This document shows, in pieces, positions 21,831 through 53,550 of a stretch of 64,000 bases of DNA. The notes beneath the pieces are model-generated. The model did no database searches and was not told the origin of the DNA. It saw nothing but the letters and a program-made list of their open reading frames with translations. The stretch comes from Bacillota bacterium (GTDB taxonomy: Bacteria; Bacillota; Proteinivoracia; UBA4975; VEMY01). Numbering within the stretch: the first letter of the stretch is position 1; each line of letters begins with the position of its first letter. The stretch lies in NCBI GenBank assembly GCA_009711825.1, contig VEMY01000021.1:64976-128975 (forward strand), read 5' to 3'. The position numbers were made by a program, and so were the translations under genes.

Positions 21831-21895
21831 ACCGTCCGATTTACCATCGCCACATGGTATATGGCGAAGGCAAACAAAATCAGCCTTCGGAAAGG
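21831..21895 (+). promoter_or_regulatory. Copy 1 of a conserved ~65-nt intergenic element (ACCGTCCGA...TGGtATATgGC...hairpin...GCCTTCGGAAAGG)
   Basis: Shares the ACCGTCCGA 5' end, the TGG(C/T)(T/A)TATA box and the SD-containing 3' hairpin arm with 26153-26220 and 53486-53550. Stem 21865-21871 / 21883-21889. Confidence 0.6.
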
Positions 21896-21909
21896 CAAGG
21901 TGATTCCAA

Positions 21910-22122
21910 GTGAAACACATACTCAAAATCAGTGTTTCAAAGGAACCGCAGGACGGCGGGATAGTCGGCTGCCGCCATGTCACCGTGCGGGAAAGGCTGC
22001 TGCGCCTCCTGTTAGGTGACAAGCGAAGGCTGACGGTCATCGTTCCGGGGGACAGCGTAAAGGCACTGTCCATTGTTGAGGAGGGAGGTGAAAACCGTGA
22101 GCAAAACCAAGCTGTTACTTAA
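21910..22122 (+). CDS. Hypothetical small protein (GTG start directly after element copy 1)
   Basis: 70-aa ORF. A Shine-Dalgarno-like GGAAAGGCAAGGTGA lies upstream. Its placement mirrors the other two element copies. Confidence 0.35.
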   Translation: MKHILKISVSKEPQDGGIVGCRHVTVRERLLRLLLGDKRRLTVIVPGDSVKALSIVEEGGENREQNQAVT

Positions 22123-22420
22123 TGTGGTGGGCGATTTGCGTTCCCTTGCGGACAGCCTGCAGGCGGTCGCGGAAGCGATGGCGGGCAATGAACCTGCCGA
22201 AGCCGCCCAGGGCGAAAAACTCGCCACAGCAAAGGAAGCAAAGCCTGCGGCAAAGGCGGTTACGCTGGAACAGGTGCGGGCTGTGCTGGCCGACAAGAGC
22301 CAGCAAGGTTTTACAGCTGATGTGCGGGCTCTGCTGGAAAAGTACGGCGCTCCCAAACTCAGCCAGATAGACCCGGCGAATTATGCTGCACTACTGGCAG
22401 ATGCGGAGGGGTTGAAATGA
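22097..22420 (+). CDS. Hypothetical phage protein (paralog of 6729..7034)
   Basis: GTG start behind a GGGAGGTG Shine-Dalgarno. Shares the LEQVRAVLA...PANYAALLADAE motif. Confidence 0.55.
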   Translation: MSKTKLLLNVVGDLRSLADSLQAVAEAMAGNEPAEAAQGEKLATAKEAKPAAKAVTLEQVRAVLADKSQQGFTADVRALLEKYGAPKLSQIDPANYAALLADAEGLK

Positions 22421-23553
22421 GTGAAGAAAAACAACATGCACTGCTCTCCGCTTCCGCTGCCTATCGCTGGATGAATTGCACACCCTCGGCACGACTGGAG
22501 CAGACATTTCAGGATAACAGCGGCGAGGCGGCTGCAGAAGGTACGGCTGCTCACGCACTGGCTGAACATAAGCTGCGCAGTGCGCTGAAGATGCGGTCGA
22601 AAAAACCCATCTTACAGTACGACTCCAAAGAGATGGACTCATACACGGATGGCTATGTGGAGTTTGTACTAGAGCAGATTGCTCTGGCAAAGAAAACATG
22701 TGTTGACCCACAAGTCCTTATTGAACAGCGGCTAAACTTCTCCAAATACGTGCCAGACGGCTTTGGCACTGGTGACTGCGTAATTATAGCAGACGGGGTA
22801 CTCCACATCATTGACTTTAAGTATGGTCAGGGTGTCCTTGTCAGTGCGGAGGATAATCCGCAAATGAAGCTGTATGCCCTTGGTGCTCTGGAGCTTTTCG
22901 ATGGCATCTATGACATCAGCACAGTGTCCATGACCATCTACCAGCCACGCCGTGAAAACGTCAGCACCTATACGGTTTTCAAGGAATCGCTGTACCAGTG
23001 GGCAGAGGAAATCTTAAAGCCCACAGCGGCAATCGCCTTCAAAGGCGACGGTGATTATGTCCCAGGCGAGCACTGCCAGTTCTGCCGTGCGGCGGTGAAG
23101 TGCCGTGCACGGGCAGAGGAAAAGCTCAAGCTAGCCCGGTTCGAATTCACACTGCCCCCACTGCTTACGGACACCGACATTGAAGAAATCCTCACCAAAC
23201 TGGACGACCTGACATCCTGGGCTAACGACATTAAAGCATACGCTCTGGAAGCGGCGGTCAGCCACGGTAAGGAGTGGCGCGGCTTCAAGTTGGTTGAAGG
23301 GCGTTCCATTAGGAAGTATTTAAACGAAGAAGCCGTCGCAGAAGCGGCTAAGGCAGCCGGGTATCGTGATATCTATGAGACTAAGCTTATCGGCATTACT
23401 GCGATGGAAAAACTGCTCGGTAAGGCAAAATTTCAAGAAATTCTCGGCGGTCTTATTGAAAAACCGCCTGGTAAGCCGACGCTGGTTCCGCTTTCGGACA
23501 AGCGTCAGGCAATCAATACATCTGCAAAGCATGATTTTAAGGAGGAAATGTAA
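22417..23553 (+). CDS. PD-(D/E)XK nuclease, Cas4-like (DUF2800-like)
   Basis: 378 aa. GTGDCVII...HIIDFKYGQG, an N-terminal Cys and CQFCRAAVKC. Paralog of 5575..6732. Confidence 0.7.
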   Translation: MSEEKQHALLSASAAYRWMNCTPSARLEQTFQDNSGEAAAEGTAAHALAEHKLRSALKMRSKKPILQYDSKEMDSYTDGYVEFVLEQIALAKKTCVDPQVLIEQRLNFSKYVPDGFGTGDCVIIADGVLHIIDFKYGQGVLVSAEDNPQMKLYALGALELFDGIYDISTVSMTIYQPRRENVSTYTVFKESLYQWAEEILKPTAAIAFKGDGDYVPGEHCQFCRAAVKCRARAEEKLKLARFEFTLPPLLTDTDIEEILTKLDDLTSWANDIKAYALEAAVSHGKEWRGFKLVEGRSIRKYLNEEAVAEAAKAAGYRDIYETKLIGITAMEKLLGKAKFQEILGGLIEKPPGKPTLVPLSDKRQAINTSAKHDFKEEM

Positions 23554-23555
23554 CC

Positions 23556-24137
23556 ATGTCAAACACAGCAAACAGAGTAAATACCGGGGCAAAATTAAGC
23601 CCCACCAAGGTTATCACAGGCATTGTTCGTCTGAGCTATGCCAACGTCCACGAGCCGAAGTCTATCAATGGCGGGACACCCAAGTACAGCGTGTCTCTTA
23701 TCATTCCCAAAAGTGACACCAAGACCATCGCAGCCATCAATGCCGCAGTGGATGCAGCTATCGAAGAAGGGCGCGGTAAGTTCGGCGGCAAAATTCCAAA
23801 CAAGGCCGCTTTGAAACTCCCGCTCCGCGATGGTGACATTGATCGTCCGGACGACGAAGCCTATGCAAACAGCTACTTCGTAAACGCCAACAGCAACTCC
23901 GCACCGGAGATTGTGGACAAGGCGCTTAACCCCATCATGAGCCGCTCGGAGGTTTACTCCGGTGTGTATGCAAGGGTCAGTGTGAACTTCTACGCTTTTA
24001 ATTCCAACGGTAATCGTGGCATCGCCTGCGGACTGGGGAATATCCAAAAAATCCGCGATGGAGAGCCGCTTGGCGGCAAGACCAGTGCAGCTGACGATTT
24101 CACCTCGGATTATGACGGCGAAGATTTTCTGGAATAA
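23556..24137 (+). CDS. SSB-like replication protein (DUF2815-like), acidic C-terminus
   Basis: 193 aa. Paralog of 4868..5551. C-terminus ADDFTSDYDGEDFLE. Confidence 0.6.
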   Translation: MSNTANRVNTGAKLSPTKVITGIVRLSYANVHEPKSINGGTPKYSVSLIIPKSDTKTIAAINAAVDAAIEEGRGKFGGKIPNKAALKLPLRDGDIDRPDDEAYANSYFVNANSNSAPEIVDKALNPIMSRSEVYSGVYARVSVNFYAFNSNGNRGIACGLGNIQKIRDGEPLGGKTSAADDFTSDYDGEDFLE

Positions 24138-24202
24138 CAGCAAAAACAACCATGGATGGGGCGGCGGGGCAACTTGCCGCCCTTTTCCGCTATGGAGGGC
24201 GT

Positions 24203-26137
24203 ATGAGAAATATTAGCATCGATGTTGAAACGTATAGCGATCGTGATCTATCCAAGTGCGGTGTCTATAAGTATGCTGAGTCACCTGATTTTGAAATTCT
24301 GCTGTTCGGTTACGCCGTTGACGGAGGAAAGGTACATGTCATTGATTTGGCAAACGGCGAAACATTGCCGGAGGAAATCAAGGAAGCTTTGATAGATAAA
24401 AATGTCACGAAATGGGCCTTCAACGCTCAGTTTGAGCGGATTTGCTTATCGCGTTATTTGGAAATATGGCTGGGAGCGGAATCATGGCGATGCACGATGA
24501 TCTGGGCAGCGTACATGGGACTTCCCCTATCTCTGGAAGGCGCAGGTGCGGTGCTCGGATTGGAAAAGCAGAAACTGAAGGAAGGAAAAGACCTCATCCG
24601 ATATTTCTCCGTGTCCTGCAAACCTACCAAGGCTAACGGCGGACGCACACGGAATCTCCCCACCGACGCGCCGGACAAATGGGAGCAGTTCAAAGCATAT
24701 AACGCCCGTGATGTGGAGACCGAAATAGCGATTCAGGTGCGACTTCAAAAGTTCCCCGTGCCGGAGGACGAATGGCAGAACTATATTCTTGATCAGCATA
24801 TCAATGACAGGGGCATCCGGCTAGACATGGGTCTGGTTACAAAAGCAATCCGATGTGAAGAGCGGGCAAAGGCTGAACTTACCCGATTAATGAAGGAAAT
24901 GACCGCACTAGACAACCCCAACTCGGTCGCGCAGATGAAGGCGTGGCTGGCCGATAACGGTCTGGAGACAGACACCCTTGGTAAGGCGGCGGTTAAGGAA
25001 CTGCTGAAAACAGCACCGGAGAATCTGGCAGAGGTGTTGACACTCAGGCAATCCTTGGCCAAGAGTAGCGTGAAGAAATATACGGCGATGGAGAGTGTCG
25101 TCTGCTCAGACAGCAGGGCCAGAGGGCTCTTGCAGTTTTATGGTGCAAACCGAACCGGGCGCTGGGCGGGTAGGTTGATTCAGGTGCAGAACCTGCCCCA
25201 GAACCATCTGCCGGATTTGGCACAGGCTCGAAGCCTTGTGAAAAGCGGCAACTTCGAAATGCTGGAAGCCCTCTATGATTCCGTTCCCGGTGTCCTGTCC
25301 GAACTCATCCGTACAGCCTTTGTTCCGAAACCGGGCTGTAATTTCATTGTAGCCGATTTCAGTGCGATTGAAGCTCGTGTCATAGCATGGCTTGCTGGGG
25401 AAGTGTGGCGCAATGAGGTGTTTGCTACTCACGGTAAGATCTATGAAGCGTCGGCAAGTCAGATGTTCCAAGTGCCCATTGAGGAAATCACCAAGGGCAG
25501 CCCGCTCCGGCAAAAGGGTAAGATTGCGGAGCTCGCCCTTGGCTACGGTGGCTCGGTAGGCGCATTAAAAACCATGGGTGCATTGGATATGGGTGTCACG
25601 GAAGCAGAACTACAACCGTTGGTGAATGCTTGGAGAACTGCCAATCCCAACATTGTACGGCTATGGTGGGACGTGGACAAGGCGGCCATGACCGCAGTTC
25701 GGGAACGGACAACAATAGACACCCACGGTATCCGTTTTGAGTGCAAAAGCGGAATGCTGTTTATAACCCTGCCTTCCGGCAGGCGGCTTGCCTATGTGAA
25801 GCCTAATATCGGTCAGAACCGCTTTGGAGGTGACGCTGTTACCTACGAAGGGGTGGGTGCGACGAAAAAATGGGAGCGCATCGAATCCTATGGTCCCAAG
25901 TTTGTGGAAAACATCGTGCAGGCAATTTCCCGTGACATCCTCTGCTATGCCATGCGGAGACTGGATAATATGGGACTCTCCATTGTTATGAGCGTTCACG
26001 ATGAGGTAGTCATTGAAGCATCACCAGATGTGTCGCTTGAGTCTGTTTGTAGCTGTATGGCAGAAACCCCTCCCTGGGCAAAAGGACTTTTGCTTCGTGC
26101 CGATGGGTTCTTGTGCCCATTTTATAAAAAAGATTAA
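24203..26137 (+). CDS. Family A DNA polymerase
   Basis: ATG at 24203 (Shine-Dalgarno GGAGGG). IDVETYSD, DFSAIEARVIAWLA, HDEVVIE. Paralog of 2928..4865. Confidence 0.9.
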   Translation: MRNISIDVETYSDRDLSKCGVYKYAESPDFEILLFGYAVDGGKVHVIDLANGETLPEEIKEALIDKNVTKWAFNAQFERICLSRYLEIWLGAESWRCTMIWAAYMGLPLSLEGAGAVLGLEKQKLKEGKDLIRYFSVSCKPTKANGGRTRNLPTDAPDKWEQFKAYNARDVETEIAIQVRLQKFPVPEDEWQNYILDQHINDRGIRLDMGLVTKAIRCEERAKAELTRLMKEMTALDNPNSVAQMKAWLADNGLETDTLGKAAVKELLKTAPENLAEVLTLRQSLAKSSVKKYTAMESVVCSDSRARGLLQFYGANRTGRWAGRLIQVQNLPQNHLPDLAQARSLVKSGNFEMLEALYDSVPGVLSELIRTAFVPKPGCNFIVADFSAIEARVIAWLAGEVWRNEVFATHGKIYEASASQMFQVPIEEITKGSPLRQKGKIAELALGYGGSVGALKTMGALDMGVTEAELQPLVNAWRTANPNIVRLWWDVDKAAMTAVRERTTIDTHGIRFECKSGMLFITLPSGRRLAYVKPNIGQNRFGGDAVTYEGVGATKKWERIESYGPKFVENIVQAISRDILCYAMRRLDNMGLSIVMSVHDEVVIEASPDVSLESVCSCMAETPPWAKGLLLRADGFLCPFYKKD

Positions 26138-26152
26138 AAGAAATTTTTCTAT

Positions 26153-26220
26153 ACCGTCCGAATCCGTCCTTTCCTGTGGCTTATACCGAAGGCCACAACA
26201 AAACTGAGCCTTCGGAAAGG
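26153..26220 (+). promoter_or_regulatory. Copy 2 of the conserved intergenic element
   Basis: ACCGTCCGAAT...TGGCTTATACC...stem CCGAAGGC (26186-26193) / GCCTTCGG (26208-26215)...GAAAGG, 10 nt before the antirepressor ATG. Confidence 0.6.
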
Positions 26221-26229
26221 ACAAACCAT

Positions 26230-27015
26230 ATGAACGAACTAAAAATTTTCTCCTACGAGGGGAAAGAGGTCAGAACGATTCAGAGAAATGGGGAGCCGTG
26301 GTGGGTGCTGAAAGATGTATGTGATGTATTAGGATTGACGACACCTACCAGAGTAGCTGAGCGGCTTGACGAAGATGAAGTGAGTCAGACTCATCTCACC
26401 GACGCAATCGGCAGACAACAGGAAACTCTTATTGTCAGTGAGAGCGGGCTTTACAATGTTATCCTGCGCTCTGATAAGCCGGAAGCCAAGAAGTTCAAAC
26501 GCTGGGTTACTCACGAGGTTCTACCGCAAATCCGCAAACATGGCGCATACATCACCACCTCCAAGCTGGAAGAGATCATGAATGATCCCGATTCCTGGAT
26601 TAAGCTGCTTACAGCCCTTAAGAAAGAGCGGCAGGAAAAGGAACGACTCCAGCTTCAGGCCGCTGAAGACAGGCCCAAAGTGGTCTTTGCCGATGCGGTG
26701 TCGGTCTCGGAAGGCACCATCCTTATTGGCGAGCTGGCAAAAATCCTCAAAGGCAATGGAATAGAAATTGGGCAGAACCGCTTGTTTGAAAGGCTCCGAC
26801 AGGACGGCTTCCTCATCAAGCGCAAAGGCACCGATTACAATGCACCGACCCAGAAGGCAATGGAACTGGGGCTGTTTAGGGTCAAGGAAACCGCCATCAC
26901 CCATTCAGACGGACATGTCACCATTTCCAAGACCACTAAGGTGACCGGCAAAGGACAGCAGTATTTTATCAATTATTTTCTCGGTGGAGGTGCGAATGGC
27001 CATGGACAGGCGTAA
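26230..27015 (+). CDS. Phage antirepressor (Bro-N N-terminal domain plus KilA-C-like C-terminal domain)
   Basis: ATG at 26230. N-terminus MNELKIFSYEGKEVRTIQRNGEPWWVLKDVCDVLGL is a Bro-N signature. Confidence 0.75.
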   Translation: MNELKIFSYEGKEVRTIQRNGEPWWVLKDVCDVLGLTTPTRVAERLDEDEVSQTHLTDAIGRQQETLIVSESGLYNVILRSDKPEAKKFKRWVTHEVLPQIRKHGAYITTSKLEEIMNDPDSWIKLLTALKKERQEKERLQLQAAEDRPKVVFADAVSVSEGTILIGELAKILKGNGIEIGQNRLFERLRQDGFLIKRKGTDYNAPTQKAMELGLFRVKETAITHSDGHVTISKTTKVTGKGQQYFINYFLGGGANGHGQA

Positions 27016-27427
27016 CAGCGAAGGATACCCCGACCCCACCGCCGCAGAAGCCCTGACAAACGTGGCTCTGGAGGAAAAAGCAAAAGTAAAGCAATACCGC
27101 CCGCTTGTCTATATTTGCTCGCCCTTTGCGGGGGATATTGACTACAATACAAGCCGTGCCCGCGGTTATTGCCGGTTTGCGGTCAGCGAGGGGTGTATTC
27201 CCCTTGCACCGCACCTCCACTACCCACAGTTCATGGATGACACCGATAAGGAAAGCCGTGAGCTTGGGCTATTTTTTGCACTGATTCTCCTTACCAAATG
27301 TGACACGGTGTGGGTGTTCGGCAGCCGGATTTCGGATGGAATGACCCGAGAAATTGCCAAAGCCAGGAGATGCGGGATTCCGATCCGGTACTTTAACGAG
27401 AAATGCCAGGAGGTGCAAGGCACATGA
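26984..27427 (+). CDS. DUF4406-like phage protein (nucleoside 2-deoxyribosyltransferase-like fold)
   Basis: 147 aa. YICSPFAGDIDYN...VWVFGSRISDGMTREIAKARRCGIPIRYF. Confidence 0.5.
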   Translation: MEVRMAMDRRNSEGYPDPTAAEALTNVALEEKAKVKQYRPLVYICSPFAGDIDYNTSRARGYCRFAVSEGCIPLAPHLHYPQFMDDTDKESRELGLFFALILLTKCDTVWVFGSRISDGMTREIAKARRCGIPIRYFNEKCQEVQGT

Positions 27428-29757: not shown

Positions 29758-29905
29758 GCATATGCTCAACATTCCAGCTATGCCAAAACCCCATACCATG
29801 GGCAGGGCCGCAAGCCCCATATTTACCAGCCTTCTTGCTTTGCCTGTTCCCATTGTGCCTAAAAATCATCTATTAAATGTTGTAGTTATAAGTAATAAAG
29901 GGATA

Positions 29906-29969
29906 ATGGGCACGTGTAAGCGCGTATACGCGCGTAAGAGTTTAAAGTGCTTGGGCACAGACATGGGCA
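29906..29969. repeat. Putative origin region of prophage B: TGGGCAC at 29906, 29951 and 29963 (variant at 29797) plus a 14-bp perfect palindrome GCGCGTATACGCGC (29919-29932)
   Basis: Read directly from the sequence. Occupies the same primase-to-VRR-NUC interval as the iterons of element A. Confidence 0.5.
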
Positions 29970-29982
29970 CAAGGAGGTTCTT

Positions 29983-30264
29983 ATGCGCGAGAAACTGATA
30001 GAACAAAAACTTGTCCGGGCTGTGAAAATGGCTGGAGGGCTTGCCTTGAAGCTTGTATCGCCTGGATTTGATGGAATGCCCGACCGCCTTATACTTTTAC
30101 CCGGTGGAAAGATGGCCTTTGTCGAGGTAAAGGCCCATGGAATGAAACCCCGGCCTTTGCAGACTCGCAGGCATGGAATGCTCAAGCGGCTGGAATTTAA
30201 GGTTTATGTCATTGACGATGAAGTGCAGATTGGAGGGATACTTGATGAAATACAATCCACATGA
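29983..30264 (+). CDS. VRR-NUC domain nuclease
   Basis: ATG at 29983 (Shine-Dalgarno AAGGAGG). GMPDRLILLPGGKMAFVEVKAHG. Confidence 0.75.
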   Translation: MREKLIEQKLVRAVKMAGGLALKLVSPGFDGMPDRLILLPGGKMAFVEVKAHGMKPRPLQTRRHGMLKRLEFKVYVIDDEVQIGGILDEIQST

Positions 30265-32055: not shown

Positions 32056-32056
32056 G

Positions 32057-32087
32057 TAATTTCGCGGACGATTTTTTAATTTCGCGG
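32057..32087. promoter_or_regulatory. Two direct repeats TAATTTCGCGG, 20 bp apart, upstream of the packaging operon
   Basis: Repeats at 32057-32067 and 32077-32087, followed by an AT-rich TATA tract. A terminator-like hairpin lies at about 32125-32160. Confidence 0.4.
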
Positions 32088-32175
32088 TGTTATTATAGTA
32101 TTATCGAAAACTATGCAATAGCCTTCTCGGGAATACCCGCGAGGGCTTTTTGTTTGCCGAAAAAGAGGTGACCCA

Positions 32176-32532: not shown

Positions 32533-32648
32533 GGGCGGTCAAAATCTCTATGACCCTCTTCCCGTGCAACGGGCGGGGGGTCACGCGCGCAAAAATTGCA
32601 GTTCAAACGGGGGATTAACCCGCCACAGCAAGGAGGAGGTGACGACGC

Positions 32649-33227: not shown

Positions 33228-33233
33228 CAATAT

Positions 33234-41171: not shown

Positions 41172-41178
41172 CGTAAAA

Positions 41179-41930: not shown

Positions 41931-41933
41931 GTT

Positions 41934-43110: not shown

Positions 43111-43138
43111 GTATCTTTTGGGAAAGGAGGCGGCATAA

Positions 43139-45421: not shown

Positions 45422-45433
45422 GGAGGGAGATAA

Positions 45434-46207
45434 ATGGGCTTTATCTATGGCGGCATATCGTCGCAAAGCATGAAAATCAAGGCGCGTCTGACCAATTGGC
45501 AGACCTCTCCCTCTCTGCGCAATGCCTTTGTTACCGTGCCCGGCAAATCAGGCGTGGCCGATTTTGGCTGCGATATTGCAGAGCGGATCATAACGGTGCG
45601 CTGCAGCGTGTATCCCCAGCGCAATTTTACCGAGCTTGTGGCTGTACTGGACAGTATGGCTGAATGGCTTAACCCGGTTAAGGGCTTAAAACAGCTTGTG
45701 CTGGACGATGTACCTGAACGATATTTCATGGCACGGCTCTCTGAGTCCGTGGATTGTGAAAGGGTTCTGCGCTCGGCTGGTTCCTTTGACCTGCGCTTCG
45801 TTTGTCCCGACCCTTATGCCTATGCACTGGATGACGAGATTTTCACCATTTCCACAGAAGGCGGTCATGTCATTGAACGGCAAGTAGGCAATGCCAATTC
45901 AGAACCGGTGTATTTTTTTAAGGGTGTGGTCACCTCATCCTCTTCCAGCTATATCGACCTTATTACCAACGGCGAGGAACTGCGGGTTGTCGGCCCGCTG
46001 GCTGAGGGCGAGACCCTTGTCATTGATACTGGCTTGGTGACAGCCAAAGTGACGGATGCTGGCGGAAACACCCTGCGGAACGGCTTGCCGTGTTTGCAGG
46101 AACTGAACTTTCCTATCTTACGCAAAGGGATTAACAATATTGAAATAACCGTTGGGGATGCAACGTTCACGGAACTTAAAATACAGGCACAGAGCCGCTG
46201 GAGGTGA
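45434..46207 (+). CDS. Distal tail protein (Dit)
   Basis: 257 aa, directly after the tape measure gene. Confidence 0.7.
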   Translation: MGFIYGGISSQSMKIKARLTNWQTSPSLRNAFVTVPGKSGVADFGCDIAERIITVRCSVYPQRNFTELVAVLDSMAEWLNPVKGLKQLVLDDVPERYFMARLSESVDCERVLRSAGSFDLRFVCPDPYAYALDDEIFTISTEGGHVIERQVGNANSEPVYFFKGVVTSSSSSYIDLITNGEELRVVGPLAEGETLVIDTGLVTAKVTDAGGNTLRNGLPCLQELNFPILRKGINNIEITVGDATFTELKIQAQSRWR

Positions 46208-48726
46208 TGAGGATGGCAGTTAAAACAGTCTTAACATTGCAGGAGGATTTTACAGGCGAGTTTCCTGTAACAGAGCGCACGTCGGCGCTGTGGAGGTTTA
46301 ATGAGAGCGCTCCAGATAGCAATACCCAACTCATGGATTCTTCCGGACACGGACGACATTTTACCATTTCTGGCTGGTCAGGCACCACCGCTGCCCTTCC
46401 CCTTAGCCGGTTCGGTCGGTATTTCAGGCAAAATATCAATAACCCGACCAGTGAAAGAACCCACCTTATAGCTGCCAACGACGGCAGCTTTTTTAATAAT
46501 TTGGGGGATAAAATTGCCGTAGGCGGCTGGATCAACCCGACCACCTATTCAATCGGTCAGACTTTTATCCCCATTTTCAATACCCGGCAAGGACCCGGAC
46601 AGCCCATCTTTTATGTGTCGCTCTATCAGGGCAGACCGCGTATGATGCTTTACAACTCGGCGGGCTCGCTGATTCTTGACCAGAGTGAAACGCCAAGTTT
46701 CTCCATGGTCAATGGCGGCTGGTACTTCATCGCAGCGGTTATTGAGGTCACTGCCAAGACTTCGCAGATAATCCTCTGTGATCGGAGTAACGGTGCGGTT
46801 TGGATAGCTCCCAAGCGCACTTTTACTGGTACCCTTAATCCGTCCTGCACTGCTGATATCGTCATGGGCATGCTGGCTAACACCTATTATTTCGCAGGCG
46901 GCTTCGACGATTGGTTCTTGGAGACCGATTCGCAGCTTACCGTGGAAGACTTGGCGGAATATTTCAGGAGTGCTCTTCTGGCCAATGGTGCTGACAGTGC
47001 TGCCAATGTGGATGCTTTAACCGAGCCTGGGACAGTCCTGCTCAAGGCGACAGGCGGTACTTATCCCGCAAGTGGTGTCTTGTATACTAAGGCGGCTCCT
47101 TGTGCACTATCCGGCAGCGGTAGGGTGTCGGTAACCAGTGAGTATGTACCGGGTGTTACCTCTATTACAGAGGTGGAAACAGCCACTTCCGATAACTTGG
47201 AAGAGTGGTCGGTGTGGCAAAACATAGGCAGCGGCGGCGAGCTGCAGTCGCCGAACAGGCAGTACATCCGCTTTCGTGTAACACTGGCAACAACCGACCC
47301 ATCAAGGACGCCTAAACTCTTGGAAATCCAGCTTCATGATATCCCAAGGCCTCCTTTTGAAAAATTAGGCTATGCCCGGCCTGTGGTACTGGACGCAAAC
47401 GGCGCATGGGAAGCTGTATTGGAGAACGCCTTTGATATTATTGTCACCGGCGAGGTCAATGGCGCTGAGGTGCTGGAATTCAAGCTGCCCTGGGGCGACA
47501 GCAAGCGGGCGGCATTGGACAACGAAAAGTCGGTGCAAATTGTCAAGGATATCTATCGCATCCGTACTATCTCAGACGAAAAAGGAACGGACGGAGCTAC
47601 CCTCACTACGGTGTATGCTGAGGCGGCCTTTTATGATCTGGCGTTCAGTGCAGAAAAGCAGCCCATCGAGTTTAATGCAGACACCCCGGATGTGCCGATG
47701 CAATATGCACTTCAAGGCACCGGCTGGTCTGTAGGCACGGTCAATGTATCCACCCTGCGGACATGGCAATGCATAGAAAAAAACGCCCTGGCTATTCTTC
47801 GGGCGGTACAGAACATCCATGGCGGTGACTTGGTTTTCGATAGCGCCAACCGATTGGTACACCTGCTGACCTTCAGCGGTAAGGAAAGCGGCGCTCTCTT
47901 TGCTTATAGAAAGAACCTTAATAGTATTAAGCGGGTGGTAGATACCCGCTCCCTGGTGACACGGCTTTATGCTTACGGCAAGGATGGCATGACCTTTGCT
48001 TCCATCAACGATGGCAAGGAGTATGTGGAGGACTACACCTATTCTAATGAGGTGCGGGTTTCCGCCCTCGATTTATCCAACTTCAGTAATCCGTATCAGA
48101 TGCTGGAGTTTACAAGGATGCGGTTGGCCGAGTACGCCAAGCCCCGTGTTTCCTATGTTTTATCTGCTATGGACTTATCCACCCTGACGGGCTATGAGCA
48201 TGAGGCATGGGAGCTTGGCGATATTGTCACCGTGGACGACCGAGACTTGAATTTAACCATTCGGACACGGATTGTCCGCAGAGAGTACAATCTGCAGGAG
48301 CCTTGGAAAACCGTGCTGGAGCTGTCCAGCAAGCTGAGAGAACTTGGCGATTCTTCAATTGAAACGGTTGCTGACCAACTGGCGCAGTCCGACCTTGTGC
48401 AGCAGGAAATCCGGGACATGGTACCTTTTAACCATCTGAGAAATTCACGCGCTGACGATGGTTTTGCCTATTGGCAGAACTCAGGCTTTGAGATTGATAC
48501 TGAAAACGGTGTGACGGGAACGGCGTCCTTCAAGGCAATTGGCGTTCCCGGTTTGACCAAGAGTATGGCACAAACGGTTTATCCAGCTTCAAGGCGCACC
48601 TATACCCTATCGGCGCAGATTGGCTCGGAGAACCTGCAAAAGGGTGCGAATGGTCAAGTGGGTATTGAGGTGGTGTTTGAGTACGAGGATGGCAGCACCG
48701 AAACACGCTTTATTGACCTATTTTAG
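46204..48726 (+). CDS. Tail-associated protein (Tal / prophage-tail family) with N-terminal LamG/ConA-like jelly-roll region
   Basis: 840 aa. The central and C-terminal parts resemble the phage minor structural / prophage tail endopeptidase family. The N-terminal ~300 aa look lectin-like. Confidence 0.65.
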   Translation: MMRMAVKTVLTLQEDFTGEFPVTERTSALWRFNESAPDSNTQLMDSSGHGRHFTISGWSGTTAALPLSRFGRYFRQNINNPTSERTHLIAANDGSFFNNLGDKIAVGGWINPTTYSIGQTFIPIFNTRQGPGQPIFYVSLYQGRPRMMLYNSAGSLILDQSETPSFSMVNGGWYFIAAVIEVTAKTSQIILCDRSNGAVWIAPKRTFTGTLNPSCTADIVMGMLANTYYFAGGFDDWFLETDSQLTVEDLAEYFRSALLANGADSAANVDALTEPGTVLLKATGGTYPASGVLYTKAAPCALSGSGRVSVTSEYVPGVTSITEVETATSDNLEEWSVWQNIGSGGELQSPNRQYIRFRVTLATTDPSRTPKLLEIQLHDIPRPPFEKLGYARPVVLDANGAWEAVLENAFDIIVTGEVNGAEVLEFKLPWGDSKRAALDNEKSVQIVKDIYRIRTISDEKGTDGATLTTVYAEAAFYDLAFSAEKQPIEFNADTPDVPMQYALQGTGWSVGTVNVSTLRTWQCIEKNALAILRAVQNIHGGDLVFDSANRLVHLLTFSGKESGALFAYRKNLNSIKRVVDTRSLVTRLYAYGKDGMTFASINDGKEYVEDYTYSNEVRVSALDLSNFSNPYQMLEFTRMRLAEYAKPRVSYVLSAMDLSTLTGYEHEAWELGDIVTVDDRDLNLTIRTRIVRREYNLQEPWKTVLELSSKLRELGDSSIETVADQLAQSDLVQQEIRDMVPFNHLRNSRADDGFAYWQNSGFEIDTENGVTGTASFKAIGVPGLTKSMAQTVYPASRRTYTLSAQIGSENLQKGANGQVGIEVVFEYEDGSTETRFIDLF

Positions 48727-48740
48727 AGGAGGTTGGCGGC

Positions 48741-48935
48741 ATGACATATTTTCAGCAGATTGCGCGGGATGCATCGCCCAGAGGTTATAAAGTCCTGCGC
48801 TCTATCACTGTCCGGCTCTGCATCACTGACTGTACAGGCTCAGTGTATTTTACCGACCTGATGCTGCAGGCTGGGTCCATCGCTACCGGCTGGGTAGGTC
48901 ATGTGAGTGAAATTCAATGGACATTTGATGGGTAG
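48741..48935 (+). CDS. Small tail-region protein, partial paralog of the next gene
   Basis: 64 aa. SITVRLCITDCTGSVYFTDLMLQAGSIATGW aligns with SITVRPVIADCTGSIWFTDLQVQEGGRLTGY. Confidence 0.4.
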   Translation: MTYFQQIARDASPRGYKVLRSITVRLCITDCTGSVYFTDLMLQAGSIATGWVGHVSEIQWTFDG

Positions 48936-49511
48936 GTGACGCATATGGTGGGAAATTTCATTCGGTTTACTGAAACCCTCAAAACAAAGGAAGAACTTCG
49001 TGTAGTCAGCATTACTGTCCGCCCTGTCATCGCCGATTGCACAGGCAGCATCTGGTTTACCGACCTGCAAGTGCAGGAAGGCGGGCGTCTCACCGGCTAT
49101 ACGCCCCACACTTCTGCGATGCTCAAGAATTCGCCAAATCCGCCGCGTTACCATAACGGCATAGTGCGAACTGGGGAAACCATCATCATCTTCAACCTTG
49201 GCGAAACCTCCTCGGGGCTGGACTGCTACATCTACCCCCTACAGGACATGGAAGCTGGAAGCATCTCTCTCTCCCAAGGTGAAGGCTCGCATAAAATGCA
49301 CTTCCTGACGGGAGCAAACGCTGGCGACGAGATGGTGTTGCGGGCTTCTACACGGGAATGCCTGAAAAATGGGATGCCTACACCAAAGCACGGTTTTTAC
49401 CAATATTCCGCCGCCCATGACAGCAAGCATCAAGTTCGGCTTCAGGAGCGTAAATCGGCACGGGTGTATTTTGAGTACAGGGAGATGCGGAAAGGACAGG
49501 AACGGCTATGA
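48936..49511 (+). CDS. Hypothetical tail-region protein
   Basis: 191 aa. Shares a ~40-aa motif with the preceding ORF. Confidence 0.5.
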   Translation: MTHMVGNFIRFTETLKTKEELRVVSITVRPVIADCTGSIWFTDLQVQEGGRLTGYTPHTSAMLKNSPNPPRYHNGIVRTGETIIIFNLGETSSGLDCYIYPLQDMEAGSISLSQGEGSHKMHFLTGANAGDEMVLRASTRECLKNGMPTPKHGFYQYSAAHDSKHQVRLQERKSARVYFEYREMRKGQERL

Positions 49512-49537
49512 GGAACTATTTAAAGGGAAAGAAGTGC

Positions 49538-51973
49538 ATGGTGTGGAGTTTCATGGGTAATGCCCGCATGTATCAGGCACTCTTTAATTACGGTGACCGG
49601 CTGGATACAGTCGGTATTTTTACTTTTGAGGTTAATAGTTCGGGAGTAATCAGTGAAACCGGCACCAGCATCAGCAGTATGCTGCCATATATCAGCCGCT
49701 GGCCCCATGTGAAGTGGCTGCTGACCATCATGAACCATGGGTCGGCTTCCATTTTTACCGCACTGCGTAACAACACCAACGGCGCAAAGGATATGTTTTT
49801 ATCCGAGATTGTGAGGATCATGAATAAATATCCTTGGTGCGCCGGTGTGGATATCGATTTAGAGCGGGGCGGCGGCTATGAAAACAAGGATGCAGCCAAT
49901 GCCTTATTTCGTGATATCTACCAGACCGTGAAGAACTACAATCCTAGCAAGCTGGTCAATATCTGTCTGCCCGGCATGACCGGTGTGCAGGGTTCGGTGG
50001 GGGGCGAAAACTGGTGTGTGTATGAGGACTTGGATGAATACTGTGATACTGCTGCCATCATGAGTTATGGCATGGCGTGGGCAGGCTCTGCACCAGGACC
50101 TGTATCCCCCCGTAGCTGGCTGGAGGGTATCTACAACTATGCCGTCCAAGTCATGGACCCGGATAAAGTGTTTTTTGGTCTTCCGGCATACGGCTGGAAT
50201 TGGCGCATCCATGACACGCCCGAAAACCTGGGGATCACCTATCGGGGTGTCTCCAACACCTATTATGCGGCCCAGCTTTGGATGACCGGGGGATACAACT
50301 TTACAGGCAACGGCCCGCCACAGCCCATGATCCCCATCATCGCCTATTGGGATGATTACGATAAGGTGCCATGGGCATTGCCCCAGGTTTATGACTATAT
50401 GGAAGGTTGGGACGCAGTGGAACGGCAAAGCCCACTGCTGCAGGAAACCTACAACAGGCGGCGCTATTTAACCGCCTATAGCAAAGAGCAGCGGACAGAG
50501 TTCGGTAGTATATTTGTCGACCGCAACGGCGTCCCGGACAGCTATACCGGTAATGTCATAGTGACGGAGAATATGGCGTCCTTGGGCGAGGACGGGGAAG
50601 CGGAGTATCAGTTCCAGATCGAGCAGGCCGGAGTTTATGATGTGGCTGTGCGGCTATGTTACCCCTTTTGGGACAAGAATGCCCTTGATGTATCCCTTGA
50701 TGGTACACTAAAGTCGTTCTCAGAAAACCGCCTGTGGTGGCCGTACTGGCGACGGATATGCTGGCTTACGCTGGCTAAAGGTGTTTTCCTTTCTGCTGGC
50801 ACGCACACTATTGGTATTAGTGGCGGTGTGCCAGGCACGCAGTTTTACGGCTTTCGGGTTTGCAGCAACTTCTCGGAAGCACCATCCGCTGGAGAAGCAA
50901 CATATACGCTCTCTCCCCGCAGTTTCAAGGATGTGAACGGTGTGATGGCCGTGCCGGATCGGGGCTTTAAGCTAACCTGTGAGATGCTCCGCAGAAGACC
51001 TGATTCAGCTCTCGTCTGGTATGAGGATTTTCGGGATGGCAATATGCTGCCACAGAGCTATTGGACGATACTGGACGGTGAATGGACGGTTTGGCAAAAC
51101 CCGGACAGCACAGCCAACCGCCCCTACTCCCAGCTTGACGGGCACGGCAGGCTGGCGTGGAAGTATGACGGTTTTTCAGACGTCCATATTCGGGCGCGGC
51201 TGGCGTTTCCTCAGAACGGCAGTGGACGAGCAGGAGTGTTCTGTGGAGACCTGTTTTGCTGTTTAAATATTGATACACAGCGGGTTGAGTTATACCAAGG
51301 CTCCACACTGCTGGGCAGCTTTTCCACCAGCTTCAACAAGACGCCGGACAGCAGTCTTCGCTCCAGTCCTAGCATGTACACCATTGAGATGCGAAAGCGC
51401 GGCAATACGGTCAGGGTATACTCCGGTGCAAGCTATACCTTGCGCTTTACGGCGACTGTTAGCCCTACGGGGGGTTATGCTGGCTACCGCTCGGATAACC
51501 GGACAGTATGTGAACTGTTGCGGTTGGGTGATGCATGGACGTATGAGCCCTATGAGGCTTTTGATGTACACATGCCGGACGGAACCACCAAGGGTTTCGG
51601 CAGGATTTCCCGCACTGGCGTCACATGGGATGAAGAATTCCAAGTGTTTTCAGTCAATAGTGATGTAGAGGAATCGTCTACCCGCTCCGAGAGCATTTCC
51701 ATGGACTATGATTTTTTTCACTCCGACCTGCTTCAAATCACCTGCGGTGGGGATTACGCCGCCAAGGTGGTGCCAAGGGACATCAATGTGTGGATCTCCC
51801 GGCTGTTTCTCGGCGACGCAGATGGTTTTTCCATTCTGTATTATCAGGATGTGGACAGCCTTGTCTATTGGGCCAATGAAGCGGCATACCGTTGGAAGCT
51901 TCGGGGTATCGCTATTTGGTCCCTGGGGCAGGAGGATATGAGACTCTGGGAGGCACTGCCCAAGCAGGTGTGA
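49538..51973 (+). CDS. Large tail-region protein with a GH18-like (chitinase-fold) N-terminal domain
   Basis: About 811 aa from the ATG at 49538. CAGVDIDLERGG matches the GH18 DxxDxDxE catalytic motif. The C-terminal ~450 aa are uncharacterised. Confidence 0.55.
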   Translation: MVWSFMGNARMYQALFNYGDRLDTVGIFTFEVNSSGVISETGTSISSMLPYISRWPHVKWLLTIMNHGSASIFTALRNNTNGAKDMFLSEIVRIMNKYPWCAGVDIDLERGGGYENKDAANALFRDIYQTVKNYNPSKLVNICLPGMTGVQGSVGGENWCVYEDLDEYCDTAAIMSYGMAWAGSAPGPVSPRSWLEGIYNYAVQVMDPDKVFFGLPAYGWNWRIHDTPENLGITYRGVSNTYYAAQLWMTGGYNFTGNGPPQPMIPIIAYWDDYDKVPWALPQVYDYMEGWDAVERQSPLLQETYNRRRYLTAYSKEQRTEFGSIFVDRNGVPDSYTGNVIVTENMASLGEDGEAEYQFQIEQAGVYDVAVRLCYPFWDKNALDVSLDGTLKSFSENRLWWPYWRRICWLTLAKGVFLSAGTHTIGISGGVPGTQFYGFRVCSNFSEAPSAGEATYTLSPRSFKDVNGVMAVPDRGFKLTCEMLRRRPDSALVWYEDFRDGNMLPQSYWTILDGEWTVWQNPDSTANRPYSQLDGHGRLAWKYDGFSDVHIRARLAFPQNGSGRAGVFCGDLFCCLNIDTQRVELYQGSTLLGSFSTSFNKTPDSSLRSSPSMYTIEMRKRGNTVRVYSGASYTLRFTATVSPTGGYAGYRSDNRTVCELLRLGDAWTYEPYEAFDVHMPDGTTKGFGRISRTGVTWDEEFQVFSVNSDVEESSTRSESISMDYDFFHSDLLQITCGGDYAAKVVPRDINVWISRLFLGDADGFSILYYQDVDSLVYWANEAAYRWKLRGIAIWSLGQEDMRLWEALPKQV

Positions 51974-52089
51974 CAAATTTTAGTAATGGAATTTCAAGAA
52001 CGCTTTTGCCCAAAACGGCAGGGCGTTCTTTTTTGTGCCGCTGGGTGCTGGCGTTAAACACAAATTACAGAAAAACGGAGGTATTGACA

Positions 52090-52503
52090 ATGAGAACAGT
52101 TTGGAACTGGGCACAGGCAGCCTTTGCCACCATGGGAGCTTTTCTTGGCTGGTTTCTTGGTGGGCTGGATGGATTTTTGTATGCCCTCATCGCCTTTGTG
52201 GTACTCGACTACCTGACCGGTGTTATATGTGCCATTACGGACAGGAGACTGTCCAGCGAGATTGGCTCGAAGGGCATCTTCAAGAAGGTGCTCATCTTTG
52301 TGCTGGTAGGAGTGGGACACATCGTCGACAGTCAGGTACTCGGCAGCAACGGTTCAATTCGGACGGCAGTGATTTTCTTTTATTTGAGTAACGAAGGCAT
52401 CTCAATCTTGGAAAACGCTGCTCATATCGGGCTGCCCATCCCCGAAAAGCTTAAGTCGATTCTTGAGCAGCTAAAAGACAAAAGCAGCAAGGAGGACGAG
52501 TAA
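52090..52503 (+). CDS. Holin
   Basis: 137 aa. ATG at 52090 behind a GGAGGT Shine-Dalgarno. Three hydrophobic helices and a charged C-terminus. Directly upstream of the endolysin. Confidence 0.75.
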   Translation: MRTVWNWAQAAFATMGAFLGWFLGGLDGFLYALIAFVVLDYLTGVICAITDRRLSSEIGSKGIFKKVLIFVLVGVGHIVDSQVLGSNGSIRTAVIFFYLSNEGISILENAAHIGLPIPEKLKSILEQLKDKSSKEDE

Positions 52504-53409
52504 ATGAACCTGAGAAAACTGATATTTACAAACAATGCCTGCTATAAGGCAGGCAGAACTATCACACCAAAGGGAATCATGGTTCATTCCACCGGCGCGA
52601 ACAATCCCTGGCTGAGACGCTATGTTGGCCCTGACGATGGTCTGCTTGGCAAAAATCAGTATAACAATCATTGGAACCAGAACAGGCCGGATGGACGACA
52701 GGTTTGTGTCCACGGCTTTATTGGCAAACTGGCTGACGGTAGTATTGCCACCTATCAAACCCTGCCTTGGAATCATCGGGGCTGGCATGCGGGAGGTACG
52801 GCTAACGACACGCACATTTCCTTTGAAATTTGTGAGGATAACCTGACTGACACTGGTTACTTCAACAAGGTCTATCACGAGGCGGTTGAACTTTGTGCAT
52901 ATCTTTGCAAACTCTATGGACTGAATGAGACCAATATCATCTGCCACAGCGAGGGCTACAGACAAGGCATCGCCAGCAATCACGCCGATGTGATGCACTG
53001 GTTCCCCCGGCATGGCAAAAATATGGATGTGTTTCGTGCCGATGTAAAGAAGCTACTGGCCGATGTGAAACCTGACCCTGCGCCTCCCACAGAGGATACC
53101 CTCTACCGTGTCCGAAAAAGCTGGGATGATCCCAAGTCCCAAAAAGGTGCCTTCAGGGTACTGGACAATGCCAAACGCTGTGCTGACGAAAACTCCGGTT
53201 ATTCCGTGTTTGACAGCACAGGTGCAAAGGTCTATAGCGGTAAAAATGATGCAGCTTATGAAATCTATACTGTCGTTAAAGGCGATTCTCTCTGGAGGAT
53301 TGCATCGGCAAAGCTGGGTAGCGGTGCCCGCTATCCAGAAATCAAGGAACTGAATGGGCTGACCTCGGATACCATCTTCCCCGGACAGAAACTGAAAATT
53401 CCAAAGTGA
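52504..53409 (+). CDS. Endolysin: N-acetylmuramoyl-L-alanine amidase (amidase_2/PGRP-like) with C-terminal LysM domain
   Basis: 301 aa. MVHSTGANNPW; C-terminal YTVVKGDSLWRIASAKLG...LNGL...GQKLKIP is a LysM signature. Confidence 0.85.
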   Translation: MNLRKLIFTNNACYKAGRTITPKGIMVHSTGANNPWLRRYVGPDDGLLGKNQYNNHWNQNRPDGRQVCVHGFIGKLADGSIATYQTLPWNHRGWHAGGTANDTHISFEICEDNLTDTGYFNKVYHEAVELCAYLCKLYGLNETNIICHSEGYRQGIASNHADVMHWFPRHGKNMDVFRADVKKLLADVKPDPAPPTEDTLYRVRKSWDDPKSQKGAFRVLDNAKRCADENSGYSVFDSTGAKVYSGKNDAAYEIYTVVKGDSLWRIASAKLGSGARYPEIKELNGLTSDTIFPGQKLKIPK

Positions 53410-53429
53410 TGAAAAGGCATAACAAGAGA

Positions 53430-53478
53430 GACCCATAGTGGGGATTATTCAATCCTTATTATGGGTCTTATTTTTTTG
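53430..53478 (+). terminator. Strong rho-independent terminator after the lysis cassette
   Basis: Outer stem GACCCATA/TATGGGTC (8 bp), inner stem GGATT/AATCC, then ttattttttt. Confidence 0.7.
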
Positions 53479-53485
53479 CACCCAA

Positions 53486-53550
53486 ACCGTCCGATTTTAC
53501 TTCCTCCGCTGGCTTATAGCAAAGGCTCTGTCATTTGCCTTCGGAGGAGG
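53486..53550 (+). promoter_or_regulatory. Copy 3 of the conserved intergenic element
   Basis: ACCGTCCGATTT...TGGCTTATAGC...AAGGC (53522-53526) / GCCTT (53537-53541)...CGGAGGAGG, 7 nt before the ATG at 53558. Confidence 0.6.

Follow-up and report, generated by a model that had tools for sequence, protein, structure and literature searches.

A repeated phage cassette with a candidate promoter nested in a Shine–Dalgarno-sequestering helix

Cassette layout and gene context

The window analysed here, a 64,000-nucleotide stretch of contig VEMY01000021.1 from a Bacillota bacterium, contains three exact occurrences of the 9-mer ACCGTCCGA, all intergenic and all on the + strand. A preliminary description had reported a common architecture in these three intergenic segments, and it is borne out: each 9-mer opens a cassette that continues with a 15-nt pyrimidine-rich spacer, a TGGCTTA box, an inner hairpin (P2), the Shine–Dalgarno (SD) sequence and a start codon. 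In all three copies the second box, TGG(C)(T)TA, lies exactly 15 nt after the 9-mer and is followed by a GAAGGC...GCCTTC hairpin, then by a purine-rich SD and the start codon. Against a position-weight matrix (PWM) derived from 59 homologous instances, the copies score 25.8–29.9 bits, and nothing in the rest of the window, on either strand, scores above 12 bits; three copies at 21831, 26153 and 53486 are far beyond chance. The features of the locus are as follows.

21416..21431, +, SD-sequestering hairpin GGCTCCgaaaGGAGCC (GGCTCC-GAAA-GGAGCC), 7 nt before the r4 ATG
21438..21830, +, gene for r4, a 130-aa sigma-region-4-only protein with recognition helix ESAIRHAVNRAK; proposed reader of the 9-mer
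21831..21839, +, copy 1, 9-mer ACCGTCCGA, adjoining the TAG stop of the r4 gene; proposed −35-like r4 site
21840..21854, +, copy 1, 15-nt spacer TTTACCATCGCCACA, a weak anti-SD
21855..21861, +, copy 1, second box TGGTATA, a TGGCTTA variant; proposed −10-like element
21865..21889, +, copy 1, P2: CGAAGGC, loop AAACAAAATCA, GCCTTCG
21890..21912, +, copy 1, SD region GAAAGGCAAGGTGA and GTG start (21910)
21910–22122, +, 70-aa ORF (phrog_7234), downstream of copy 1
26153..26161, +, copy 2, 9-mer ACCGTCCGA
26162..26176, +, copy 2, spacer; its anti-SD GTCCTTTCC (26166–26174) pairs with GGAAAGGAC (26214–26222)
26177..26183, +, copy 2, box TGGCTTA
26186..26215, +, copy 2, P2: CCGAAGGC, loop CACAACAAAACTGA, GCCTTCGG
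26214..26232, +, copy 2, SD GGAAAGGAC and ATG start (26230)
26230–27015, +, Bro-N/KilAC antirepressor gene, downstream of copy 2
53428..53479, +, intrinsic terminator (19-pair stem and T-run) that closes the lysis cassette
53486..53494, +, copy 3, 9-mer ACCGTCCGA
53495..53509, +, copy 3, spacer; its anti-SD TACTTCCTCCG (53498–53508) pairs with CGGAGGAGGTA (53542–53552)
53510..53516, +, copy 3, box TGGCTTA
53522..53541, +, copy 3, P2: AAGGC, loop TCTGTCATTT, GCCTT; an A.C mismatch removes the terminal pair
53542..53560, +, copy 3, SD GGAGGAGG and ATG start (53558)
53558–53965, +, HTH/zinc-ribbon gene (sigma-r4-like HTH and zinc-ribbon), downstream of copy 3
54172–55467 and 55406–57046, two serine recombinases after the HTH/zinc-ribbon gene

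The downstream genes are those named previously, and the suggestion that three genes with regulatory or decision functions are connected through the cassette is supported, with the sigma-like r4 gene implicated as well. The weaker hairpin described before r4 is also present; its stem is kept in relatives, with loops of 4 to ~26 nt. Numerous temperate phages of anaerobic Firmicutes share the cassette. It recurs at the same three syntenic sites in dozens of viral contigs, and in genomes of Peptococcaceae, Pelotomaculum, Syntrophomonas, Christensenellaceae and others: one site follows the r4 gene, another precedes the Bro-N/KilAC gene, and the third lies ahead of the HTH-zinc gene and serine recombinases.

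Pairing of the Shine–Dalgarno sequence

The SD had been assigned to the 3′ arm of the hairpin that we call P2. That arm, however, is GCCTTC(G), and the SD (GGAAAGG or GGAGGAGG) starts after it, so P2 overlaps the SD by at most 1–2 G and does not occlude it. Nor do the window copies carry the pairing-preserving stem substitutions reported for them: the arms have the same sequence in all three apart from the A.C mismatch of copy 3, and hence there is no compensatory change among them. Instead, it is the 15-nt spacer separating the two boxes that pairs with the SD, forming a longer outer helix, P1, that encloses P2. SD sequestration as such is real, and its assignment to P1 is backed by covariation in related phages, the very place where it had been proposed to look.

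At the RNA level, the spacer is complementary to the SD. Duplexes between a spacer and its own SD have an energy of −12.86 kcal/mol, compared with −11.09 ± 0.35 for permuted partners (0/5000 as low) and −9.77 ± 0.31 for shuffled spacers; tests of cognate against non-cognate duplexes within a type were marginal (p ~0.04–0.11). When the P1 and P2 structure was imposed on 71 sequences, 75.7% of cells were paired (42–55% in slid controls) and 87 showed double changes (46 ± 5.7 in shuffles), and in the type-2 family alone 7 of the 13 P1 pairs have compensatory changes. The complementarity is type-specific, matching GGAAAGG with CCTTTCC, GGAGGAGG with CCTCCTCC and CAG with CTC, and covariation extends into helix extensions past the SD, for example AAATAGTCC/GGACTATTT and AACCGTCC/GGACGGTT. 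RNAalifold run without an imposed structure recovered P2 but not P1. P2 covaries in relatives as well (GAAAGC/GCTTTC, GAAGAC/TTCTTC), which means that some RNA must include its 5′ arm; this fits a start just upstream of P2 and also a role confined to read-through RNA.

Opening the SD costs 8.6 kcal/mol in read-through RNA; for RNA that begins just ahead of P2 the cost is 3.6 kcal/mol (n=58, p=4e-11). The corresponding costs are 19.2 versus 8.4 kcal/mol for copy 3 and 4.5 versus 2.7 kcal/mol for copy 1, whose spacer pairs through TTACC and GCC with GGTGA and GGC, and whose P1 is weak on folding. Folding of the three copies, a check put forward earlier, gave z-scores against shuffles of −3.65 (copy 2) and −4.13 (copy 3); copy 1 reached only −0.86. 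Single-sequence folds, duplex tests, opening energies and compensatory pair counts agree that in long transcripts the SD is paired with an upstream segment, as in the T4 gene e type of arrangement.

The two boxes and the r4 protein

Across the 59 instances, strong conservation is confined to positions 1–9 and 25–31. The second box always follows the 9-mer after 15 nt, although P1 slides in register from one subfamily to another; in this the boxes act as promoter elements in DNA would, and not as RNA motifs. Some variants (L066, L067, L077 and L081) have no hairpin and have lost the RNA structure while keeping the 9-mer, the spacing and the box. Their SD starts ~6 nt after the box, so any start site would have to lie right after it. 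The element does not resemble a sigmaA promoter: no + strand match to the sigma-70 consensus (TTGACA-like and TATAAT-like hexamers, 16–18 bp apart) was found in any of the three copies, and TGGCTTA is unlike a sigmaA −10 element, the PWM giving TGGCwTA followed by variable bases, with C where the −7 T is expected. The T-run of the strong lysis-cassette terminator ends 6 nt before copy 3, so the operon that follows needs its own promoter. A + strand scan found no terminators inside the three copies, where P2 is followed by GGAAAGG or GGAGGAGG and no T-run, and the cassette is thus not an intrinsic terminator or attenuator.

The r4 protein contains a sigma-4 domain, as seen from a Pfam Sigma70_r4_2 match (4e-9), an NCBIfam sigma70-ECF match limited to profile positions 98–165, and Foldseek top matches of the C-terminal domain to ECF sigma-4 or −35-binding domains. 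Residues 1–60 have no profile match to sigma-2 or any other domain; in the AF2 model the N-terminus is a beta-hairpin and one helix, then a disordered stretch (38–60), and the linker is disordered and basic. With only 130 aa and lacking a sigma-2 domain, r4 cannot be filed as a sigma factor.

The 9-mer falls into discrete classes, ACCGTCCGA, CACGCAAA, CTACCCGA and GGGGTTCGA; scans anchored only on the constant TGGCTTA and hairpin returned three discrete classes at the same offset. One phage has one class at all its sites, and where phage lineages differ, the 9-mer changes en bloc. On the sequences compared, the class tracks the recognition helix of r4, with only ~4 independent specificity switches behind the link because the classes are also clades: ESAIRHA[VI]xRA goes with CCGTCCG (>30 distinct proteins), PSTI[IM]RExxKA with CACGCAAA (6 proteins), ESTIRKAT with CTACCCGA (3 proteins) and E[TA]AIRNRLKK with GGGGTTCG (2 proteins). 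Two control proteins showed no such tracking: the helix of the HTH-zinc protein is invariant across the classes, and the CI-like repressors of a class A phage and a class B phage share 85% identity.

A proposed nested promoter and competing accounts

Because the block changes of the 9-mer track r4 and copy 3 directly follows a terminator, we favor a promoter plus leader over a stand-alone RNA leader. A conserved bipartite element of fixed spacing brackets the anti-SD, and we interpret each copy as an r4-dependent, non-sigmaA promoter nested in the anti-SD helix, with a probability of about 0.55. Of the structured RNA leader proposed earlier, the conserved regulatory cassette and the SD sequestration stand; the boxes are promoter-like, and the anti-SD would act only on read-through RNA.

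We envision that, at the DNA level, the phage's own r4 (21438–21830) recognizes the 9-mer as a −35-like site, with TGGCTTA, 15 bp downstream, as the −10-like partner of the 9-mer and a predicted start a few nt beyond the box, near the first bases of GAAGGC. The resulting mRNA would begin with P2, leaving the SD free and translatable. Read-through RNA would contain the spacer and fold P1 around P2, and with its ribosome-binding site buried it would be translationally silent. Such RNA could arise from the r4 gene, the replication genes or the repressor/ImmA operon, which runs in the same direction, and also from the late operon whenever RNA polymerase gets past the terminator there. The lytic genes share their strand with a perfect TTGACA-17-TATAAT promoter, that of the repressor/ImmA operon, which provides a reason for insulation against read-through. 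Translation of the antirepressor, the small early ORF and the HTH/recombinase operon would then occur only from r4-started transcripts.

It is unlikely that the whole ~75 nt acts purely as RNA, a structured 5′ UTR within a long polycistronic mRNA in which ACCGUCCGA and UGGCUUA are single-stranded motifs and a bound protein or ligand opens P1 to turn translation on. Both P1 and P2 covary as genuine RNA helices, copies 1 and 2, having no upstream terminator, are certainly transcribed as RNA, and the conservation falls on the unpaired flank and the inter-helix junction, which resembles riboswitch-like elements. However, a fixed 15-nt distance over a sliding P1 register is expected of duplex DNA and not of an RNA fold, the 9-mer covaries with a sigma-4-type HTH helix, which reads double-stranded DNA, and the hairpin-less variants and the strong terminator ahead of copy 3 also speak against it. 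The whole window has no gathering-score Rfam match, when the three copies were scanned permissively, all matches were to generic hairpins and lay far below threshold, and the cassette is not a member of any described Rfam cis-regulatory RNA family.

Less probable still is an operator role, in which r4 is a repressor and the asymmetric 9-mer its orientation-specific site, silencing the three genes much like the stoperators of cluster A mycobacteriophages. The 9-mer is indeed asymmetric, singly oriented, repeated between genes and covariant with a phage DNA-binding protein. Yet the phage already has a CI-like repressor and ImmA protease with their own consensus promoter, and the 9-mer sits at the −35 position of an element without a sigmaA-like −35 or −10, leaving no evident promoter for r4 to repress; constant phasing relative to another conserved box is a usual mark of promoter recognition. 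We give similarly little credence to a generic, mobile expression module spread by recombination without dedicated regulation, resembling the promoter-stem-loop (PeSL) repeats found in T4-type phages, in which the spacer complements the SD incidentally, the one being rich in pyrimidines and the other in purines. Some relatives do carry the cassette before other genes (MNWIHS..., MFMSRLQ..., MNELVLYAFEG...), and copy number varies, the annotated relative PV036453 having only 2, but the complementarity is type-specific, exceeds that of composition-matched shuffles and permuted partners, and covaries beyond the SD. A put-like antitermination RNA that modifies RNA polymerase to pass downstream terminators, suggested by a ~65-nt two-helix RNA repeated in a one-directional phage genome, is highly improbable, as the helices are nested rather than tandem, the SD itself forms the 3′ arm of the outer one, the only strong terminator seen nearby precedes copy 3 instead of following it, and the conserved sequence consists of unpaired DNA-like boxes.

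The nested promoter that we favor has its closest parallel in T4 genes e, soc, 49 and I-TevI, where a late promoter is nested in an SD-occluding hairpin: long transcripts started upstream fold with the SD paired, and the phage promoter lies inside the DNA of the hairpin's 5′ strand, so that its mRNA lacks the inhibitory arm and is translated (PMC3014915). The same division between SD-paired read-through RNA and translatable promoter-started mRNA is proposed here. Unlike the single TATAAATA box of the T4 late promoter, read by gp55, the promoter proposed here is bipartite (9-mer and TGGCTTA); moreover, the anti-SD lies within the promoter spacer, there is an extra inner hairpin, one design serves each of the three sites and recurs in many Firmicute phages, and the start site is a predicted one. 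With ECF sigma factors (for example PDB 2h27, 5fgm, 3hug), the C-terminal domain of r4 shares the sigma-4 fold and sequence signature, and the cassette shares the promoter geometry, in which a fixed ~16 bp separates an asymmetric upstream motif from another element; r4 differs in having a small beta-hairpin/helix N-terminal domain in place of sigma-2. At T4 middle promoters, sigma appropriation by MotA/AsiA has a phage protein read a motif that replaces the host −35, while the polymerase holoenzyme reads the remaining promoter through a normal sigma70 −10; MotA is not sigma-4-like. Here, too, a phage protein, r4, would read a motif in place of the host −35, but the second box is not sigmaA-like. 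Short oriented motifs just upstream of gene starts also recur within single phage lineages as PeSL of T4-type phages and as start-associated sequences and stoperators of mycobacteriophages, some of them tied to a phage DNA-binding protein; PeSL use host-type promoters and stoperators are repressor sites. To our knowledge, none of these has been described with an anti-SD in a promoter spacer. If the nested-promoter reading is true, replication, antirepression and excision functions would be tied to one switch and insulated from read-through.

Copies, gene context and carriers of the cassette

The 64-kb window has exactly three occurrences of the sequence ACCGTCCGA (21831, 26153 and 53486; copies 1, 2 and 3), always on the + strand and always between genes, and the alignment of the three copies extends over ~80 nt. 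Each cassette runs in the same order, from a 9-mer through 15 nt, TGG(C)(T)TA, 3–4 nt and a (C)GAAGGC/GCCTTC(G) hairpin (P2) to a purine-rich Shine-Dalgarno sequence (SD) and the start codon. Scored with a position-weight matrix of 59 homologous instances, the copies reach 25.8–29.9 bits; the rest of both strands stays at or below 12 bits. The cassette has no Rfam family match, and a full-text literature search for ACCGTCCGA returned only unrelated primer matches. We regard it as a real, conserved, regulatory feature. The prophage that holds it is transcribed entirely from the + strand.

Features of the prophage around the three copies
19838, + strand: CI-like HTH repressor, first in gene order; ImmA-like peptidase (20254) next
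Between the ImmA-like peptidase and r4 genes, + strand: 72-aa zinc protein
21438–21830, + strand: r4, a 130-aa sigma-region-4 protein, directly before copy 1
21910, + strand: GTG start codon downstream of copy 1
Copy 1 to copy 2, + strand: small ORFs, DUF2800 nuclease, SSB, PolA
26230, + strand: ATG start codon downstream of copy 2
After copy 2, + strand: Bro-N/KilAC antirepressor, VapE, SNF2 helicase, ArpU-like regulator, then packaging, head, tail and lysis genes
After the lysis genes: terminator, then copy 3
53558, + strand: ATG start codon downstream of copy 3
After copy 3: sigma-r4-like HTH/zinc-ribbon protein, two large serine recombinases, then the host gerA gene

The terminator before copy 3 has a 19-pair stem, and its T-run stops 6 nt short of the cassette. 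On the – strand at 21883–21896, GCCTTTCCGAAGGC followed by TGATTTTGTT gives a weak terminator-like score, probably a side effect of P2, whose + strand loop is A-rich. The HTH/zinc-ribbon protein (53558–53965) belongs to phrog_2308, and its C-terminal part matches HNH-endonuclease PHROG families. In all the lineages compared its HTH hardly varies; the protein may act as a recombination directionality factor or regulate the recombinases. Since a host GerA spore-germination gene (57169–58998) directly follows the recombinases and GC content falls from ~0.52 to 0.37–0.43 after 56 kb, the right prophage end lies here, and the host is indicated to be a spore-former.

A pattern scan found the cassette in 28 viral contigs. 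Protein-anchored samples, unbiased as to the cassette (30 loci via r4 and 80 via the HTH-zinc protein), carry this cassette at the three corresponding syntenic positions. Among the carriers are genomes of Peptococcaceae, Pelotomaculum terephthalicicum JT (whose locus L144 has a type-1 copy), Syntrophomonas, Christensenellaceae, Anaerovoracaceae and Pelosinus. A large protein search added host names, with close r4 homologues from Desulfitobacterium, Desulfitobacteriaceae, Paradesulfitobacterium and Propionispora; among the best 120 matches listed, all at least 75% identical, there were no new specificity classes. Single-protein searches with r4 proteins of 9-mer classes B, C and D gave few extra loci, and an alignment-based locus search found no conserved stretch. 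Among annotated phages, the nearest is a Syntrophomonadaceae phage placed under Ca. Heliusvirales; the paper that describes this lineage is silent on sigma factors, promoters and recombinases.

Paired boxes and the recognition helix of r4

In all instances 15 nt separate the 9-mer from TGG, and information content is concentrated at positions 1–9 and 25–31. Scans anchored on the constant part alone (TGGCTTA plus GAAGGC...GCCTTC) revealed discrete 9-mer classes at the same offset, namely (A/G)CC(G/A)TCCG(A/T/G), xCACGCAAA and (A/G)CTACCCGA; a sister lineage has GGGGTTCG(A/G). A single phage uses a single class at all its sites. Four variants lack the hairpin but retain the 9-mer and, 15 nt further on, the box, with the SD ~6 nt past it, so any start site would have to lie immediately after the box. 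From these sequence patterns, we infer that the boxes are promoter-like elements acting at the DNA level.

None of the three copies contains a sigma-70-consensus promoter in a promoter scan. On inspection by eye, TGGC was rejected as a sigma-54 element, the GC being absent at the required distance, and an extended –10 (TGn) reading fails on wrong phasing and a poor hexamer. These motifs also occur elsewhere in some relatives. A recurring opposite-strand sequence, GCACCGTCCGAAGAAAGAGCGGCTATATGTTCC, lies ~0.9 kb downstream of the type-2 copy (L001 ~9446, L003, L007, L008, L013, L015); it contains the same 9-mer, yet only 13 nt before TATAT, and is missing from this window. At L026 (11229–11273), a second ACCGTCCGA sits in a terminator-hairpin loop just upstream of a type-3 cassette.

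The 9-mer class tracks the recognition helix of r4, which reads ESAIRHA[VI]xRA in >30 distinct proteins, PSTI[IM]RExxKA in 6, ESTIRKAT in 3 and E[TA]AIRNRLKK in 2. A 43%-identical protein that retains ESAIRHA also retains the CGTCCG core. Two other candidate readers served as controls. Between this class A (CCGTCCG-type) prophage and a class B phage the CI-like repressor shares 85% identity, and between many class A phages it is unrelated; it was rejected because its similarity does not follow the 9-mer class. The HTH-zinc protein was likewise dismissed, its helix (ISENTVKS[FY]CRRNNLG) being invariant between classes.

By sequence and fold, the C-terminal domain of r4 is a sigma-4 domain whose best structural matches are ECF –35-binding domains; it follows a small N-terminal beta-hairpin/helix and a disordered basic linker. 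Because a sigma-2 domain is absent, r4 falls outside the sigma factors proper. Our boldest reading, to which we assign a probability of only about 0.3, is that r4 is a minimal ‘half-sigma’ of a new kind, its sigma-4 domain joined to a short N-terminal module, that reprograms host RNA polymerase to a bipartite promoter. Such a promoter would combine a –10-like TGGCTTA unlike that of any host promoter with at least four natural, mutually orthogonal –35 specificities (CCGTCCG, CACGCAAA, CTACCCGA and GGGGTTCG), and every cognate promoter would embed an anti-SD, making expression strictly dependent on initiation there. If r4 reads the 9-mer, swapping the r4 helix from ESAIRHAVNRAK to PSTIIRETDKAA should turn its preference from CCGTCCG to CACGCAAA.

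Pairing of the inter-box spacer with the Shine-Dalgarno sequence

The preliminary description, which proposed a structured RNA leader with an SD-occluding hairpin, is supported in part. Its account of boxes, hairpin and downstream genes matches ours; the hairpin it named, P2, leaves the SD unoccluded and does not covary within the window, because its 3' arm stops just 5' of the SD and the arm sequences are identical in all copies, copy 3 being merely mismatched. In single-sequence folding of copies 2 and 3, it is the 15-nt inter-box spacer that pairs with the SD, forming a longer outer helix, P1 (GTCCTTTCC with GGAAAGGAC and TACTTCCTCCG with CGGAGGAGGTA, respectively). Folding z-scores are –3.65 for copy 2 and –4.13 for copy 3, and weak for copy 1 (–0.86).

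Across relatives, the mean duplex of a spacer with its own SD is –12.86 kcal/mol, against –11.09 ± 0.35 for permuted partners (0/5000 as low) and –9.77 ± 0.31 for shuffled spacers; within-type tests are marginal (p ~0.04–0.11). With the P1+P2 structure named, 75.7% of cells pair in 71 distinct sequences versus 42–55% in slid controls, and 87 cells are double changes versus 46 ± 5.7 in shuffles. At pair 23–68, 31 sequences have CG and 16 have UA, a CGG/CAG switch compensated in the spacer. Within the type-2 family, 82.8% of cells pair, with compensatory changes at 7 of the 13 P1 pairs and 100% pairing in P2. P2 itself comes in two compensated variants (GAAAGC/GCTTTC and GAAGAC/TTCTTC) and has several G.U changes. 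With no structure named, RNAalifold recovered only a 3-bp GGC/GCC helix from the pooled alignment, in which type-1 rows are one column out of register and the P1 register slides, and P2 without P1 from type 2 alone. This sliding of P1 from subfamily to subfamily fits simple occlusion, not a rigid fold. We rejected a pseudoknot that would join UCCGA of the 9-mer to the UCGGA following P2, as many relatives have UCAGA there with the 9-mer unchanged; the compensation lies in the spacer. In three type-2 copies (L036 ~9440, L039 ~10731, L043 ~8037), two adjacent candidate P2 3' arms, CTTCGC then GCCTTC, each complement overlapping stretches of GCGAAGGC, which would allow alternative hairpins in that subfamily.

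The energy needed to open the SD (n = 58) is 8.6 kcal/mol in read-through RNA; it is 3.6 when the RNA begins 2 nt upstream of P2 and 5.2 when it begins within the P2 loop. The corresponding values are 4.5, 2.7 and 8.1 for copy 1, 9.2, 3.5 and 1.7 for copy 2, and 19.2, 8.4 and 8.9 for copy 3.

A proposed circuit and the guarding of r4

We propose that the cassette is an r4-dependent promoter, bound by r4 at the 9-mer, whose spacer doubles as an anti-SD. Transcripts arriving from upstream would be translationally locked, whereas those initiated in the cassette would lack the anti-SD, start with P2 and be translated. In this model, the conservation, the spacing, the tracking of r4 by the 9-mer class and the covarying P1/P2 pairs are observed, and r4 binding, promoter activity, the start position and the direction of regulation are proposed. 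The proposed mechanism matches the nested late promoters of the T4 genes e, soc, 49 and I-TevI (PMC3014915); it differs in promoter type, in its trans factor, a sigma-4-only protein, and in placing the anti-SD in the promoter spacer at every site.

A read-through lock suits this genome because the repressor/ImmA operon, preceded by a terminator (19741–19762) and a perfect sigmaA consensus promoter (TTGACA-17-TATAAT, 19803–19831), is co-directional with all lytic genes. The r4 gene itself is guarded by weak terminators and an SD-sequestering hairpin. Downstream of ImmA lies a terminator-like hairpin (20972–20998), and the r4 leader (21290–21437), which has no Rfam match, contains a long hairpin, ACGAGCCT...AGGCTCGT then TCTTTGCTTT (~21349–21400), that looks like a terminator and is not listed by a simple terminator scan; the SD hairpin GGCTCC-GAAA-GGAGCC comes after it. 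In relatives, the r4 leader takes alternative conserved forms with a clear terminator and an upstream GGAGCCGAG capable of alternative pairing, which suggests, from sequence, that an attenuator may control r4. In more distant relatives (L070, L083, L088 and similar), a terminator hairpin (GCCCCTC...GAGGGGC plus T-run) ~110 nt ahead of the HTH-zinc gene contains ACGCAA(G)...TGTAGAC/TGTGGAT, and the next feature is a local SD hairpin, CCTCCGAATGGAGG; the nesting principle is the same, a terminator arm replacing the anti-SD.

The proposal offers a testable circuit for temperate phages of anaerobic Firmicutes that form a widespread, uncharacterised lineage. In it, a single small sigma-4-like protein would turn on replication-proximal genes, the antirepressor and the excision/integration operon, and the translational lock would act against read-through in a genome whose lysogeny operon and lytic genes are co-directional. 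The helix/9-mer specificity classes, together with the promoter-embedded anti-SD, could be orthogonal, low-leak expression parts for Clostridia.
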